Part shown: positions 1,727 through 10,349 of the stretch, piece after piece
How the letters are laid out: every line of letters starts with the position of its first letter
How positions within the stretch are numbered: position 1 is the stretch's first letter
Source: a virus
DNA: 15,525 bases
Virus genome (UHGV): UHGV-0084806
Reading direction: 5' to 3' (one strand)
Translations under genes and position numbers: made by a program
Notes under the pieces: generated by a model
What the model saw: the letters and a program-made list of their open reading frames with translations, nothing else
What the model was told of the DNA's origin: nothing
Databases searched by the model: none

Positions 1727-2050
1727 ATGGATGCTGGCGTTCTCGTTCTAGCAGTTCAACAATACCCAATCACAAAACAATTCACTGATAACGAACTTTG
1801 CACACTCGCCTGGTTATGGCGAGCAGGGAATGTGATGTTAATTACCTACCAGAACGTTACTCCTCTTCTTCAGGTTGCGGAGCATCGTGAAGCTGGTCGC
1901 TTCACTTCTATCGAGCAAGAATATCCCCAGATACTCAATAAGGCACAGGCAATCCTTGCCAGAGAAACGGCACATGTAAAATTCCGGCCGTGGCAGGATG
2001 ATAAGTGGAGTCGAGTTTTGCCGCATTTACGTTCGGATCGATTACAGTAG
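1727..2050 (+). CDS. Hypothetical protein (orphan, 107 aa), possibly a gene remnant
   Basis: Protein-like translation with no motif I recognise. An in-frame TAG at 1715-1717 prevents upstream extension; weak ribosome-binding site. The antisense ORFs overlapping it look like low-complexity junk. Confidence 0.35.
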   Translation: MDAGVLVLAVQQYPITKQFTDNELCTLAWLWRAGNVMLITYQNVTPLLQVAEHREAGRFTSIEQEYPQILNKAQAILARETAHVKFRPWQDDKWSRVLPHLRSDRLQ

Positions 2051-2113
2051 ATTCCAATTAACAATGAGAAACACATAGCCACCCCGTGGTATTGAAACCA
2101 TATAATGTTGGAT

Positions 2114-2143
2114 TTGAAAACAGATCTTTTTCCATGTATTAAT
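2114..2143 (+). promoter_or_regulatory. Candidate sigma70 promoter (TTGAAA, 17-nt spacer, TATTAA with adjacent TG)
   Basis: -35-like TTGAAA at 2114-2119 and -10-like TATTAA at 2137-2142, with TG at 2135-2136. Predicted start site near 2150, reading into the ORF-free island and the ORF at 2512. Confidence 0.3.
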
Positions 2144-2149
2144 AACTAC

Positions 2150-2511
2150 ATCCCCGCGAGTGATTCAAAAAGGAGGGCCCAATTTTGTCCGAGTTTTTGT
2201 ATTCCCCCGCATGCCGCTGCGGAGCACTACATCTGAGTGTCTGACTAGGGGATAAAATTAGACTGGATAGTGAGAAGAAAGTGGCGTGCTAGGCTGTGCC
2301 GAGTGCTACCAGTACACCCTGGGGGTGTGCAGCTTTCGCCGAGACTGTAGTGGGTATCGGTTAATGCACGAAAAACCGAGAGGTCAGACAACCAATTTGC
2401 CGTAGGATTGTTTCCGGTGCGATACCGGTGTACTAACTGAAAGCAATGCGAAAAAGCATAAACTCGGTCCTTCAGTCGCCCTACACACTATTTACTAAGA
2501 AGGGCTAAAGC
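2150..2511 (+). other. ORF-free island; candidate structured non-coding RNA or long 5' leader of the downstream 118-aa ORF
   Basis: The six-frame track has no ORF of 60 aa or more on either strand across about 2083-2511. The island is visibly more GC-rich than the AT-rich ORFs on either side. Several short inverted repeats are visible, e.g. GGTATCG at 2354-2360 pairing with CGATACC at 2421-2427, ACACCC/GGGTGT at about 2314-2328, and CCGAG/CTCGG motifs. Confidence 0.3.
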
Positions 2512-2868
2512 ATGGATACAATTATCACATGGATGGGAGATCGTCTGTTGGGGTGGATAACAAACAAATCCGATCTGCGGCAGAGGGCAATCACTGGATT
2601 AACTCCTGCGATTTATTCAACAATTTTATATACTGAAAAATTAAAACGTGGTGAGCCTAATAACCCAAACGAAGAAGAAAAACTTTATAGGCTTTGGTAT
2701 GAAGCGTCTTCCCAAGTCGTAGACTTTGATCGAGAGCTGGCTAAAAGATGTTTAGATAAATCAGAATATTGGCTTCATTCTGAATTATATAGCCCTGAGA
2801 AAGTTGGAGAGCTAAACATTTCTTTGGTTGGTATGAAGGCAACGCTTGAAGGAATAAAGCACAATTAA
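2512..2868 (+). CDS. Hypothetical protein (orphan, 118 aa, AT-rich)
   Basis: ATG at 2512 preceded by AAGAAGGG (Shine-Dalgarno-like) 6-13 nt upstream. Coherent translation rich in charged residues. No recognisable domain. Confidence 0.55.
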   Translation: MDTIITWMGDRLLGWITNKSDLRQRAITGLTPAIYSTILYTEKLKRGEPNNPNEEEKLYRLWYEASSQVVDFDRELAKRCLDKSEYWLHSELYSPEKVGELNISLVGMKATLEGIKHN

Positions 2869-3055
2869 AACCTTTGATTTGCGATAATCAACTCGCCATA
2901 ATCATGTCATCGGAGCCTGAACAACTCCGGTGACTTCTGCGCTAAACGGGGACGTTTATGCGCACACACAATCCAAACTCTCTTCTCCCTCCACAGATGC
3001 AGAAATGCACCTGCGATATATTGTATCCAGCGTTTGACCTCTGCGGAGGTGAAGC

Positions 3056-3511
3056 GTGAATCTCCCACAAGATGGCATCAAATTACATCGCGGTAACTTC
3101 ACCGCTATCGGTCGGCAGATCCAGCCTTATCTGGAGGAGGGCAAATGCTTTCGCATGGTGCTTAAACCGTGGCGTGAGAAACGCAGTCTTTCCCAGAATG
3201 CACTCAGCCACATGTGGTACAGCGAAATCAGTGAATACCTCATCAGCAGGGGTAAAACGTTCGCTACTCCAGCTTGGGTAAAAGATGCTCTCAAACACAC
3301 ATATCTCGGTTATGAAACCAAAGACCTGGTTGATGTCGTAACCGGTGATATCACCACTATCCAGTCGTTACGCCATACCTCCGATCTTGATACCGGAGAG
3401 ATGTATGTCTTCCTGTGTAAGGTTGAAGCCTGGGCGGTGAATATTGGCTGCCACCTGACTATTCCGCAGAGCTGCGAGTTCCAGCTGCTCCGCGACAAGC
3501 AGGAGGCGTAA
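3056..3511 (+). CDS. ybcN: YbcN-like nin-region protein (DUF1367 family)
   Basis: 151-aa translation ([30 protein letters not shown]...) matches the DLP12 YbcN protein as I remember it. GTG start at 3056 with GGAGGTG Shine-Dalgarno. Stop overlaps the ninE start (TAATG). Confidence 0.8.
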
Positions 3512-4954: not shown

Positions 4955-5125
4955 TTAAAAATGGGGCGTTGAAACGCCCCCAAAAATAAAGGGTAATATA
5001 TAACAGAAGGTTTGTATAGTTAGAAGCAAGGTTGTGCTTCTAAAGGAAGTGGCTTGAGGGAGCCACTTATATGTTGGGGAGGCAAAGCCTCCCACAACAT
5101 ATCTTTTAGTAATCAAATTAGAACT
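4955..5125 (-). ncRNA. Candidate IpeX-like sRNA / 3' end of the porin transcript, ending at an intrinsic terminator
   Basis: Immediately downstream of the porin stop (5118) on the minus strand there are three hairpins: GGGAGGC-AAA-GCCTCCC (5076-5093), AAGTGGCT...AGCCACTT (about 5048-5069), and GGGGCGTT-GA-AACGCCCC (4962-4979). The last is followed on the minus strand by ATTTTTAATAAC, a U-rich tail. From memory, the DLP12 sRNA IpeX lies at the 3' side of nmpC; exact limits are uncertain. Confidence 0.4.
4962..4979 (-). terminator. Intrinsic terminator hairpin (8-bp GC-rich stem, U-tract on minus strand)
   Basis: GGGGCGTT/AACGCCCC stem with a 2-nt loop; the U-rich run lies on the minus-strand side (reverse complement of 4950-4961). 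Oriented to terminate the porin/IpeX-like transcript. Confidence 0.5.
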
Positions 5126-6200
5126 GGTAAACCATACCTACAGCAACGATATCATCGGTAGCAACGCCAGATGCTTTCGTGAAATCGCTCTTATCAATCA
5201 GGTTGATTTTGTAGTCAACAAAAGTGGACATATTTTTGTTGAAGTAATAGGTTGCACCTACATCAACATATTCAACCAGGTCCTGATCACCCCAAACACC
5301 CAAGTCTTTTCCTTTAGAATGCAGGTAAGCAACGGATGGACGCAGGCCGAAGTCGAACTGATATTGTGCAACAGCTTCGAAGTTTTGTGCTTTGTTGGCA
5401 ATATGGTTATTACCAAAAACAGTCATGTTCTGGGTTTCAGAATAGGTGGTGGCCAGATAGATGTTGTTCGCATCATATTTCAGACCAGCTGCCCATACTT
5501 CAGCATTTTGACCAGAAGCATTCAGACCGTTGTTACCGTAGATAACCTGATTATTAGTGCGATCAGATTTAGCATAGGTTGCACCCACGCCGAATCCTTC
5601 ATACTCATAAGTAGTTGAGAAACCGAAACCATCGCCATTAGCTTCAGTTACTTCATTTCGGTCATTTTTGCCCTGATACTGAGCTGCAAAGTTCAGGCCA
5701 TCAACCAGACCAAAGAAGTCGTTGTTACGATAAGTTGCAACACCTGTGGTGCGACCAGTCATGAATACATCTGTTTGGGTCCAGGTATCGCCACCGAATT
5801 CTGGCAGAACGTCAGTCCACGCACCGATGTCGTATGCTACACCGTAGTTACGGCCGTAATCGATTGAGCCGTAGTCACCGAATTTCAGGCCTGCAAATGC
5901 AAGACGGGTTTTGTCTTTGGAGGAACCTTGAGATTCAGCGCGGTTGCCTTTGAATTCATATTCCCACTGACCGAAACCAGTCAGTTGATCGTTGATTTGG
6001 GTTTCACCTTTGAAGCCAAGACGGGCATAAGTAGTATCACCATCATCTGCATCATTAGAGGAGAAGTAGTGCTTAGCATTAACTTTCCCGTACAGATCCA
6101 GCTTGTTACTGTCTTTATTATAAATTTCAGCTGCCTGAGCAGACATCGCCATCAGTACTGATGCAGCTACAGCAGAAATTGCCACTGTTAATTTTTTCAT
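5118..6200 (-). CDS. nmpC: Outer membrane porin, OmpC/OmpF/NmpC family (prophage moron)
   Basis: 360-aa ORF with a signal peptide ([30 protein letters not shown]), the porin-family signature, and a C-terminal ...VGMVYQF ending in Phe, typical of beta-barrel proteins. Encoded antisense between Q and the lysis genes, as nmpC is in DLP12. Confidence 0.9.
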
Positions 6201-6788
6201 CGTGAGCCCTTTTTTTTGAACTATTATTAAAAAATGATGTCACTGCGCGATAAATATTCATCTAATCAATGTGATTATTTCAAGATGTAAGTTTTAGTTT
6301 CTCATTTAATTTGTGAAGTAGATCTCTATTTTTATCTGAACTTTTTCTATCGAAACCTATTTATGGCTCTTATTTGAACAAAAATAAACCTATTAGCTAA
6401 TTTATATTAATGGCTGTTATTTATGGGGGTTCTATAATTCGGCAGTTTAATTTAAATCAACTAAAAATAACGTCTGAAATTATTTATTGGTTATTTGTTG
6501 AGGTTTTCTTATGTATTTGTGGTGGAGTTTTGAACACTCGGTAGCATTCTCATAAATATCATTCAGTGGTTTACGTACGTAAAAAATTGGTTATGCTGTT
6601 AAGAGTGGTTACTTCGTCACACAGCTTAAACCCGCCGTCGAGCTGGTTTTTCCATTTTTTGAGTCTCGATATTAGCTGATAACTCAATACCTGAGTTATT
6701 CACTGACTCCGAGTCTGTTACGTTTCTGCTTTTTTGCGATACGTTGTATTCCCTCAATTTACACCCGCTTTGTCTGCGAGGTGGGGTT
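6201..6788. promoter_or_regulatory. AT-rich intergenic region: porin promoter (minus strand) and upstream region of the lysis cassette (plus strand)
   Basis: About 590 bp with no ORF, very AT-rich with many A/T tracts. Lies 5' of both the divergent porin gene and the holin gene. Confidence 0.35.
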
Positions 6789-7004
6789 ATGAAATCCATG
6801 GATAAGTTAACAACGGGTGTCGCCTATGGCACCTCAGCAGGTAGTGCCGGTTACTGGTTTTTACAGCTGCTCGATAAAGTCACGCCCTCACAGTGGGCAG
6901 CAATAGGTGTGCTGGGTAGCCTGGTATTTGGCCTGCTGACGTACCTGACAAACCTTTATTTCAAGATTAAAGAAGATAAGCGCAAGGCTGCGAGAGGTGA
7001 ATAA
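6789..7004 (+). CDS. essD: Holin, phage-21 S21-type (pinholin-like), dual-start motif
   Basis: The track ORF starts at 6744; the likely start is ATG 6789 ([26 protein letters not shown]...), with a second Met at codon 4, the classic holin/antiholin dual start. Two hydrophobic segments and a charged C-terminus ([13 protein letters not shown]). Stop overlaps the endolysin start (TAATG). Confidence 0.85.
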
Positions 7005-7501
7005 TGCCTCCATCATTACGAAAAGCCGTTGCTGCTGCTATTGGTGGCGGAGCAATTGCTATAGCATCAGTGTTAATCACTGGCCCAAGTGGTAACGATG
7101 GTCTGGAAGGTGTCAGCTACATACCATACAAAGATATTGTTGGTGTATGGACTGTATGTCACGGGCATACAGGAAAAGACATCATGCTCGGTAAAACGTA
7201 TACCAAAGCAGAATGCAAAGCCCTCCTGAATAAAGACCTTGCCACGGTCGCCAGACAAATTAACCCGTACATAAAAGTTGATATACCGGAAACAACGCGC
7301 GGCGCTCTTTACTTGTTCGTTTACAACGTGGGCGCTGGCAATTTCAGAACATCGACGCTTCTTCGCAAAATAAACCAGGGCGATATCAAAGGCGCATGTG
7401 ATCAGCTACGTCGCTGGACATATGCTGGCGGTAAGCAATGGAAAGGTCTCATGACTCGTCGTGAGATTGAGCGTGAAATCTGTTTGTGGGGTCAGCAATG
7501 A
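7004..7501 (+). CDS. rrrD: SAR endolysin (lysozyme, R21/RrrD-like) with N-terminal signal-arrest-release domain
   Basis: 165 aa. The N-terminus is Gly/Ala-rich and weakly hydrophobic ([20 protein letters not shown]), typical of a SAR domain; the rest resembles a T4-lysozyme-type muramidase. Stop overlaps the Rz start. Confidence 0.85.
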
Positions 7502-9411: not shown

Positions 9412-9611
9412 CCCGCCAGATGTTTGCGCAGAAGGTGTCGGCATATACCGGCCTGTCCGTGCAGGCTGTGCTGGATACCGAGGCTGCAGTGTACAGCGGT
9501 CAGGAGGCCATTGATGCCGGACTGGCTGATGAACTTGTCAACAGCACCGATGCGATCACCGTCATGCGTGATGCACTGGATGCACGTAAATCCCGACTCT
9601 CAGGAGGGCGA
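9412..9611 (+). pseudogene. Remnant of the 3' end of head gene C (protease/scaffold fusion), lacking start and catalytic region
   Basis: In the nu3 frame, ...QMFAQKVSAYTGLSVQAVLDTEAAVYSGQEAIDAGLADELVNSTDAITVMRDALDARKSRLSGGR matches the C-terminal part of lambda gpC just upstream of the nested nu3 start. No upstream C sequence is present. Confidence 0.7.
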
Positions 9612-10007
9612 ATGACCAAAGAGACTCAATCAACAACTGTTTCAGCCACTGCTTCGCAGGCTGACGTTACTGACGTGGTGCCAGCGACGGAGGGCGAAAA
9701 CGCCAGCGCGGCGCAGCCGGACGTGAACGCGCAGATCACCGCAGCGGTTGCGGCAGAAAACAGCCGCATTATGGGGATCCTCAACTGTGAGGAGGCTCAC
9801 GGACGCGAAGAACAGGCCCGCGTGCTGGCAGAAACTCCAGGTATGACCGTGGAAACGGCCCGCCGCATTCTGGCCGCAGCACCACAGAGTGCACAGGCGC
9901 GCAGTGACACTGCGCTGGATCGTCTGATGCAGGGTGCACCGGCACCGCTGGCTGCAGGTAACCCGGCATCTGATGCCGTTAACGATTTGCTGAACACACC
10001 AGTGTAA
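9612..10007 (+). CDS. nu3: Nu3 capsid scaffolding protein
   Basis: ATG 9612 preceded by GGAGGG. The 131-aa product (MTKETQSTTVSATASQADVTDVVPATEGENASAAQPDVNAQI...NDLLNTPV) matches lambda Nu3 from memory. Confidence 0.8.
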   Translation: MTKETQSTTVSATASQADVTDVVPATEGENASAAQPDVNAQITAAVAAENSRIMGILNCEEAHGREEQARVLAETPGMTVETARRILAAAPQSAQARSDTALDRLMQGAPAPLAAGNPASDAVNDLLNTPV

Positions 10008-10016
10008 GGGATGTTT

Positions 10017-10349
10017 ATGACGAGCAAAGAAACCTTTACCCATTACCAGCCGCTGGGCAACAGTGACCCGGCTCATACCGCAACCGCGCCCGGCGGATTG
10101 AGTGCGAAAGCGCCTGCAATGACCCCGCTGATGCTGGACACCTCCACCCGTAAGCTGGTTGCGTGGGATGGCACCACCGACGGTGCTGCTGTTGGCATTC
10201 TTGCGGTTGCTGCTGACCAGACCAGCACCACGCTGACGTTCTACAAGTCCGGCACGTTCCGTTATGAGGATGTGCTCTGGCCGGAGGCTGCCAGCGACGA
10301 GACGAAAAAACGGACCGCGTTTGCCGGAACGGCAATCAGCATCGTTTAA
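10017..10349 (+). CDS. D: Head decoration protein D
   Basis: Start at ATG 10017 ([41 protein letters not shown]...), 110 aa, near-identical to lambda gpD from memory. The track start at 10011 adds two codons. Confidence 0.9.

Follow-up and report, generated by a model that had tools for sequence, protein, structure and literature searches.

The ORF and its genomic setting

The DNA analysed here is a 15,525-nt stretch of viral sequence (UHGV virus genome UHGV-0084806; hereafter the window), which is a lambda-like Escherichia coli prophage of the DLP12 type. On its + strand, positions 2512–2868 hold an open reading frame (ORF) of 118 codons, running from an ATG at 2512 to a TAA ending at 2868 and recorded in RefSeq as hypothetical protein WP_000379700.1. 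No gene is annotated across the ~460 nt preceding it (2051–2511, hereafter the island). Conservation and covariation identify within the island the core of a structured RNA (2139–2483, + strand). Comparison of related loci identifies the ORF as an exchangeable accessory gene of lambda-like phages, which here heads the nin region behind the RNA.

The ORF is a genuine gene under purifying selection. Ten full-length homologues from Obesumbacterium, Enterobacter and metagenomes share 51–99% identity; each is exactly 118 amino acids (aa) long, and hardly any variation is seen in the C-terminal half (AKRCLDKSEYWLNS...LNISL..M.A.LE..KH). Pairwise codon comparison of 18 distinct alleles gave ratios of nonsynonymous to synonymous substitution (dN/dS) of 0.06–0.30, with dS reaching 0.8 to more than 2. 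The only named match of the ORF is PHROG 12412, a family of unknown function (E 4.9e-71, residues 1–118 on profile positions 1–118); no family was matched in Pfam-A, NCBIfam or PADLOC. An initial annotation made from the sequence alone had thus been right that the frame exists and that it holds no recognised domain. The site AAGAAGGG (2497–2504), 7 nt before the ATG, pairs with the anti-Shine-Dalgarno sequence with a duplex energy of just −5.6 kcal/mol. The ribosome-binding site described earlier as good is therefore present but only of moderate, acceptable strength. In other lineages, the corresponding position before the homologous gene holds weaker motifs, ACGG or ATGG. Inspection of the protein sequence by eye revealed neither a signal peptide nor a membrane segment, and the net charge is about −2 by our count of residues. 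The product is predicted to be a soluble, cytoplasmic, mildly acidic and all-helical protein.

The AT-richness noted in the initial annotation is real. The G+C content (GC) of the ORF is 38.1% (31.9% at third codon positions), against 46.2% for the island, 49.9% for the RNA core and 48.8% for the whole window, so that, like a moron, the ORF differs in base composition from the flanking phage genes. A classical moron also brings its own promoter and terminator. A consensus scan found no sigma-70-like site in 2051–2511, and the only terminator candidate downstream of the ORF is a weak hairpin at 2998–3015; these absences are not decisive because both scans are crude.

The left part of the window carries ybcK (89–1615, +; 36% GC), the large serine recombinase gene of DLP12-type prophages, which is annotated in RefSeq and matches the Pfam families Resolvase, Recombinase and Zn_ribbon_recom. 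It is followed by a 107-aa antirepressor fragment (1727–2050, +) that retains only the P22-type C-terminal domain (Pfam P22_AR_C, E 1.1e-15; PHROG Ant families; RefSeq). We read this fragment as a probable scar of recombination that marks the cassette's left edge. Neither gene, nor the ORF, had a match in PADLOC 2.0. An AT-rich, semi-conserved flank recognised in upstream-flank alignments (2095–2138, +) precedes the RNA core, whose helices span 2150–2477. A 34-nt spacer (2478–2511), in which no terminator was found, separates the last helix from the ATG. Beyond the ORF, the spacer 2869–3055 contains a promoter-like site (2874–2902), the weak hairpin mentioned above and a 33-aa hypothetical ORF of RefSeq. 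The right edge of the variable slot is marked by ybcN (NinB-type; 3056–3511, +), the first conserved gene of the nin region, which is annotated in RefSeq and follows the slot in related loci. Further downstream lie ninE, ybcO, rusA, a Q-type antiterminator gene, an ompC-like porin gene, and lysis and head genes. The segment 6150–6600, between the porin gene (5118–6200, − strand) and the lysis genes, is very AT-rich (28–29% GC).

The recombination that probably left the antirepressor fragment would have placed the cassette where the K-12 DLP12 prophage carries ybcL-ybcM. The isolated complete temperate coliphages Turner and IdasGreatGrand carry the same cassette, 99.6–99.9% identical. The cassette therefore belongs to working phages and not merely to a decayed prophage.

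A conserved structured RNA upstream of the ORF

The window segment 2139–2483 shares 78–83% identity with intergenic sequences of phages from Klebsiella, Enterobacter, Obesumbacterium and metagenomes. With pattern scans of IMG/VR and of metagenomes, the total rose to 100 loci, from which 36 distinct full-length sequences were aligned. The consensus fold of this RNA of ~330 nt comprises 94 base pairs in 18 helices, arranged in two domains that correspond to approximately 2150–2253 and 2261–2477 in the window. Standard pairs occupy 97.7% of the paired alignment cells, compared to 35–46% when the 3′ partners are slid by 1–3 columns. With the same control, pairs changed on both sides fall from 17 to 1–6 and the covariation score from 0.206 to 0.04–0.05. 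At some pairs, such as that of columns 209 and 218, as many as five pair types are seen. Abundant G-U pairs assign the RNA to the + strand, which is also that of the ORF. The RNA changes far more slowly than neighbouring neutral sites: between loci L054 and L063 its core is 94.8% identical, with a dS of 0.83 in the ORF. The thermodynamic stability of the single sequence is unexceptional (z = −0.70), and the case for an RNA is consequently made by covariation and conservation.

At the gathering threshold, Rfam 15 had no match to the island, either in the window or in any of seven related loci; searching up to E = 10 returned two chance small nucleolar RNA matches, both outside the island. Of 5,426 complete E. 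coli genomes, 159 (~3%) contain the RNA, in no case annotated, and its hosts are Enterobacterales (E. coli, Klebsiella, Enterobacter and Obesumbacterium). A two-block island pattern, verified on all collected loci, had no match among GTDB species representatives, from which the element is therefore absent. Our literature searches on the accession, the phage names and RNAs of the nin region or of ybcK returned nothing relevant. Some 10,000 candidate structured RNAs from IMG/VR have been catalogued (PMC10690425), and the island RNA may be among them. The RNA svsR, also prophage-encoded, is a different molecule of 77 nt located at the 3′ end of cI (PMC12803456). Matches to Rfam STnc100 and isrJ occur further downstream in three related loci (L002 8010–8205, L027 11456–11659 and L052 8437–8512); the window itself has no Rfam match.

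Two other identities of the island were considered and discarded. A hidden small protein is contradicted by the Klebsiella-type frame of 61 codons, which is stopped at codon 4 in the window (GTG TCT GAC TAG), and none of the other reading frames is conserved. Type III toxin-antitoxin loci carry tandem direct repeats of ~34–36 nt upstream of the toxin gene. No tandem repeat was detected in 1900–3100 at a minimum score of 30, the island being a single non-repetitive fold.

Some features of the RNA and its flanks deserve mention. The heptamers GUCUGAC (2239–2245) and GUCAGAC (2384–2390) are perfectly complementary, and their pairing as a long-range helix or a pseudoknot could connect the two domains. 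As neither heptamer varies among the 36 sequences, covariation cannot test this pairing. An AT-rich motif of the type CCATAT..TGTATAGTTGAA (also CCATAT..GTTGAA) lies 30–60 nt upstream of the RNA core in the window, where it includes TATAAT at 2101–2106, and in the equivalent flanks of L054, L063, L067 and L002. The flank 2095–2138 may be the promoter of the RNA, although a sigma-70 consensus scan called no promoter there and the spacing between the −35 and −10 elements is non-canonical. In an E. coli prophage (L045, ~3380–3400), the 3′ end of the RNA is replaced by unrelated sequence from about alignment column 330, which may represent an insertion or a recombination breakpoint inside the RNA.

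Linkage of the RNA and the ORF at a variable slot

Close homologues of the ORF (69–100% identity), found in five lineages besides E. coli, all have the RNA directly upstream, and in each of these lineages the start codon lies ~34 nt past the last RNA helix. The RNA occurs in 159 complete E. coli genomes, and the ORF, whole or as a fragment, in 158. Across loci, the identities of the RNA and of the ORF co-vary (r = 0.97), which argues that the two are inherited together within the clade. The initial annotation had taken the contrast in GC as a sign of separate acquisition. This contrast is weak evidence, because the island is a structured RNA, whose GC may largely reflect base pairing.

The association is not reciprocal: close homologues of the ORF always come with the island, but the island also occurs without the ORF. 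In about 60 of the 158 E. coli genomes, only 59–66 codons of the ORF are left; the remnant is ~92% identical and the RNA is 98–99% identical. The 66-aa PHROG 8527 is such a truncated form of PHROG 12412, of which PHROG 28881 is a distant relative. In related phages, the slot behind the RNA is occupied by at least four unrelated genes, or by none. One encodes a 183-aa protein (L002 4416–4967; PHROG 27260) with an RHNLLH motif of the HEPN-like Rx4H type. Another encodes a 178-aa protein (L075 ~9460–10035; 191 aa in the gene call, which uses an upstream start) whose two ends each carry a hydrophobic segment that probably spans the membrane. A third occupant is a pair of genes for proteins of 95 aa (L027 6280–6567; PHROG 23640) and 162 aa (6745–7233). 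In L067 the slot is empty and the next gene, which we take from its sequence to be a nin gene of the DUF1367 type, begins 120 nt downstream. The alternative slot genes had no match in Pfam or PADLOC and matched only families of unknown function in PHROGs. They are not distant relatives of the ORF either, the hhalign probability being at most 0.2%.

The lineages with the 183-aa gene, the 178-aa gene or no gene have a canonical intrinsic terminator 5–10 nt after the RNA (for example L067 2162–2187, L075 9451–9468 and, in the Klebsiella type, AAACCGCCTACCGGCGGTTTTTTTT), and from this we infer that the island RNA is a discrete gene. That terminator is absent from every lineage with the 118-aa ORF, and the scan of the window found none between RNA and ORF. 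The ORF appears to have taken the place of the terminator and would therefore be transcribed as a 3′ extension of the RNA. Co-transcription of the two in the window lineage is thus probable.

A second location in the early-left operon

Three more distant homologues of the ORF protein, P0016 and P0015 (51% identity) and P0022 (42%), are not accompanied by the RNA. Genes of these types lie in the early-left operon, just before xis/int, where the start codon shares nucleotides with the stop codon of a DNA_pol3_theta-like (HolE-like) gene in an ATGA-type arrangement. The pairing is found in two clades, those of P0016 and P0022 (examples are L060 55–656 and L109–L111 3735–4363). Both locations, the head of the nin region and the early-left operon, are expected to be transcribed early in the lytic development of lambda-like phages, and the early-left operon next to xis/int is expected to be silent in the lysogen. 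A self-contained promoter-gene-terminator layout was detected in neither location. The earlier view of the ORF as prophage cargo is borne out by the exchange of slot occupants, by these 42–51% identical homologues that live elsewhere without the island and by the truncations in about 60 E. coli genomes.

The ORF protein belongs to a widespread family of helical domains

A profile built from the ten homologues was searched against 1.84 billion cluster representatives and retrieved 351 of them at E ≤ 1e-3, 24 of which were at E ≤ 1e-10. The ORF is therefore no orphan, contrary to its first description. Membership of the ORF protein in this unnamed helical family holds by construction, since it was the founding query. 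Most members are stand-alone proteins of 118–135 aa. In an alignment of 41 members, A33, T37, Y40, W62, K83 and W87 are invariant, and E55, A65, A77, C80 and I103 are nearly so. The family motif L..LW..A....D..LA.RC..K..YW and the conserved residues are common to matches at 21–32% identity.

About 12 matches are longer proteins that carry the helical domain of ~110 residues, mostly as their N-terminal part. In P0073 it is followed by a TIR domain (Pfam TIR_2, E 3.8e-18), and in P0054 and P0062 by a region matching the N-terminus of the PADLOC candidate PDC-S60. Multi-pass membrane segments follow it in eight proteins (P0080, P0153, P0117, P0168, P0067, P0075, P0116 and P0118). The C-terminal half of P0161 weakly resembles an alpha/beta-hydrolase (Pfam Hydrolase_4, E ~0.01), and we read the region N-terminal to the helical domain of P0115 as having the same kind of weak resemblance. 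Profile matches thus indicate a widespread family which, in bacteria, also serves as the N-terminal module of TIR, membrane and hydrolase-like proteins.

The genomic contexts of two fusions were read, one TIR fusion and one membrane fusion, and both are conflict contexts: P0073 adjoins a GmrSD restriction gene, and the membrane fusion follows an XRE-type helix-turn-helix gene near an ArdC anti-restriction gene. Among other homologues, one stand-alone gene is located 18 nt downstream of a gene for a 495-aa TIR_2 protein, another lies within a HigB/M78/transposase island and a further one occupies an unremarkable chromosomal site. The gene neighbourhoods of these relatives appear to fit conflict systems.

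Predicted fold of the ORF protein

AlphaFold2 predicts an up-down bundle of four helices (residues 2–45, 52–69, 74–88 and 95–117) with a mean predicted local distance difference test (pLDDT) score of 80 and a predicted template modelling (pTM) score of 0.70. HPt domains and the P1 domain of CheA are four-helix bundles, as the ORF protein is predicted to be, and its sequence identity to them is 7–13%. De novo designed bundles score almost as highly, which reduces the resemblance to overall topology. No histidine, the phospho-accepting residue of HPt domains, is found among the invariant or nearly invariant columns. A profile search against PDB sequences gave nothing below E 0.3, and fold searches of PDB and BFVD returned nothing specific. 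None of the searched libraries recognised a catalytic motif in the ORF protein.

Possible roles of the ORF protein

Our preferred reading, held tentatively and as possible rather than probable, is that the phage protein is an early-expressed decoy or regulator of the N-terminal modules of effectors, with a counter-defence or host-modulating role, and not a toxin that protects the lysogen. Such a role is favoured because the genes occupy early-operon positions, the effector half is missing and the ORF decays in resident prophages. Lying in the same orientation as the early-right genes, the ORF has an expression context that points to early lytic transcription. It is dispensable in lysogens, as the truncations in about 60 of the 158 E. 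coli genomes attest. In the proposed mechanism, the RNA transcript would run on at its 3′ end through the ORF, which would be transcribed along with the early-right genes; the product of the ORF would act during early lytic development. The free-standing phage copy would work non-enzymatically, through protein-protein contacts. Its target would be the N-terminal sensing or assembly module of TIR, membrane or hydrolase-like effectors, for which it would serve as decoy or regulator.

Several points weigh against this proposal. The literature searched yields nothing on the function of the ORF, and a generic four-helix bundle tells little about it. Fusions are a minority of the family, most members being stand-alone, metagenomic and of unknown context. 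Both the promoter scan and the terminator scan are crude, and the RNA may itself contain a promoter. The AT-rich composition and the variable slot are equally expected of a moron expressed in the lysogen, and none of the present results decides whether the protein would serve counter-defence or defence.

The main competing explanation, which we regard as somewhat unlikely, is indeed that the ORF is a moron-type factor for defence or superinfection exclusion, expressed in the lysogen from the promoter of the RNA and acting alone or with a host effector. Its AT-richness relative to the surroundings, a slot shared with a probable membrane protein and with the 183-aa RHNLLH protein, and the fusion of the domain to modules (TIR and membrane) that typify abortive-infection proteins fit this explanation equally well as they fit an early-expressed decoy. 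In addition, the terminator of the RNA in other lineages resembles the 3′ half of a moron unit, although no promoter was detected. However, the ORF protein has no effector domain and no PADLOC match, and neither a promoter nor a terminator was found flanking the gene; the anti-phage defence role implied by the initial annotation thus receives no direct support. Moreover, the distant homologues in the early-left operon are expected to be silent in the lysogen, and the ORF decays in ~40% of its E. coli carriers while the RNA is kept. A different and decidedly unlikely possibility is that the RNA is the partner of the protein, which would bind, stabilise, process or regulate it as a ribonucleoprotein, or else that the RNA is a leader gating translation in cis. 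The constant distance of 34 nt in every lineage with a close homologue, the correlated identities of RNA and ORF, and the loss of the terminator exactly where the ORF is present would all agree with such a partnership. So would a GCCCU...AGGGC pairing that could mask the ribosome-binding site in the window, but this hairpin is not conserved in other lineages and simple linkage also explains the co-variation. In addition, the RNA is preserved whether the ORF behind it is truncated, replaced by unrelated genes or missing altogether, the 42–51% identical homologues do without it, and a net charge of about −2 by our count is unusual for an RNA binder.

The overlap with the stop codon of the theta-like gene in two separate clades (P0016, 51%; P0022, 42%) raises the possibility of a replication accessory, in which the protein and the phage homologue of HolE, the theta subunit of DNA polymerase III, would together modulate the host replisome. 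We consider this very unlikely, since no theta-like gene lies near the ORF in the window clade and nothing connects the TIR, membrane and hydrolase fusions, or the contexts in which they lie, to replication. Finally, the truncation to 59–66 codons in many E. coli prophages and the lack of a family name might suggest a spurious or decaying frame without function. The dN/dS ratios of 0.06–0.30 at saturated synonymous sites effectively refute this explanation, and the length of 118 aa kept across genera, the 351 family representatives and the confident structure prediction leave it a negligible probability.

A more far-reaching scheme, which is speculative and improbable as a whole, would make the RNA an exchange platform for small conflict proteins. 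Phages would swap such proteins behind a terminator-ended RNA that heads the nin region. In the window lineage, where the terminator is replaced, the RNA would act as a structured leader gating the expression of a free-standing sensor or assembly domain, known elsewhere from TIR and membrane effectors. This protein would be a new class of immune decoy, or of sponge for a ligand bound by the conserved T37, Y40, E55, K83 and C80. RNA and gene would together constitute a new kind of phage module, and the RNA a new class of large riboregulator.

The ORF was already known as a hypothetical protein in RefSeq and PHROGs; what is new is the breadth of its family, the fusions to effectors, the two conserved genomic locations and the link to an RNA gene. 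We rate the upstream RNA as the more novel and surprising object of the two, and the ORF marks an exchange slot behind this conserved, covariation-supported RNA of ~330 nt that has no Rfam family. The binding target of the phage copy could reveal how single-gene immune proteins that have not been studied are switched on and off. Since the isolated phages Turner and IdasGreatGrand carry the whole cassette, it is open to bench testing.

Comparison with known systems

The island RNA, which is several hundred nt long, resembles the large phage-associated RNAs GOLLD and ROOL and the lambdoid small RNAs STnc100 and svsR in being conserved, structured, borne by temperate phages and of unknown function, but it has no Rfam match to GOLLD, ROOL or STnc100. 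For the protein, the likeness to HPt and CheA P1 domains is limited to the four-helix bundle, with no conserved histidine and 7–13% identity. The members of PHROG 12412 are phage proteins of the same size that match over the full length; the PHROG families differ in carrying no function. The N-terminal modules of TIR and membrane effectors such as P0073 are related to the ORF protein by profile-level homology, a common motif and conflict contexts. In contrast to these fused effectors, the phage protein is the domain alone, and none of the fusions is itself characterised or included in PADLOC through the domain.

Ocr, Tad1/Tad2 and Acb2 are small, acidic, non-enzymatic phage proteins that are made early and neutralise host immunity by mimicry or sequestration. 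The ORF protein is likened to them by its proposed mode of action, no relation in sequence or fold having been found. In gene organisation, the ORF resembles the accessory genes found in variable slots of lambda-like phages (morons and the non-essential genes of the nin region and early-left operon). The ORF is likewise small, AT-rich, non-essential and swapped between phages at a fixed position between conserved genes. However, whereas a classical moron has its own promoter and terminator, the ORF appears to have neither and instead replaces the terminator of the RNA gene.

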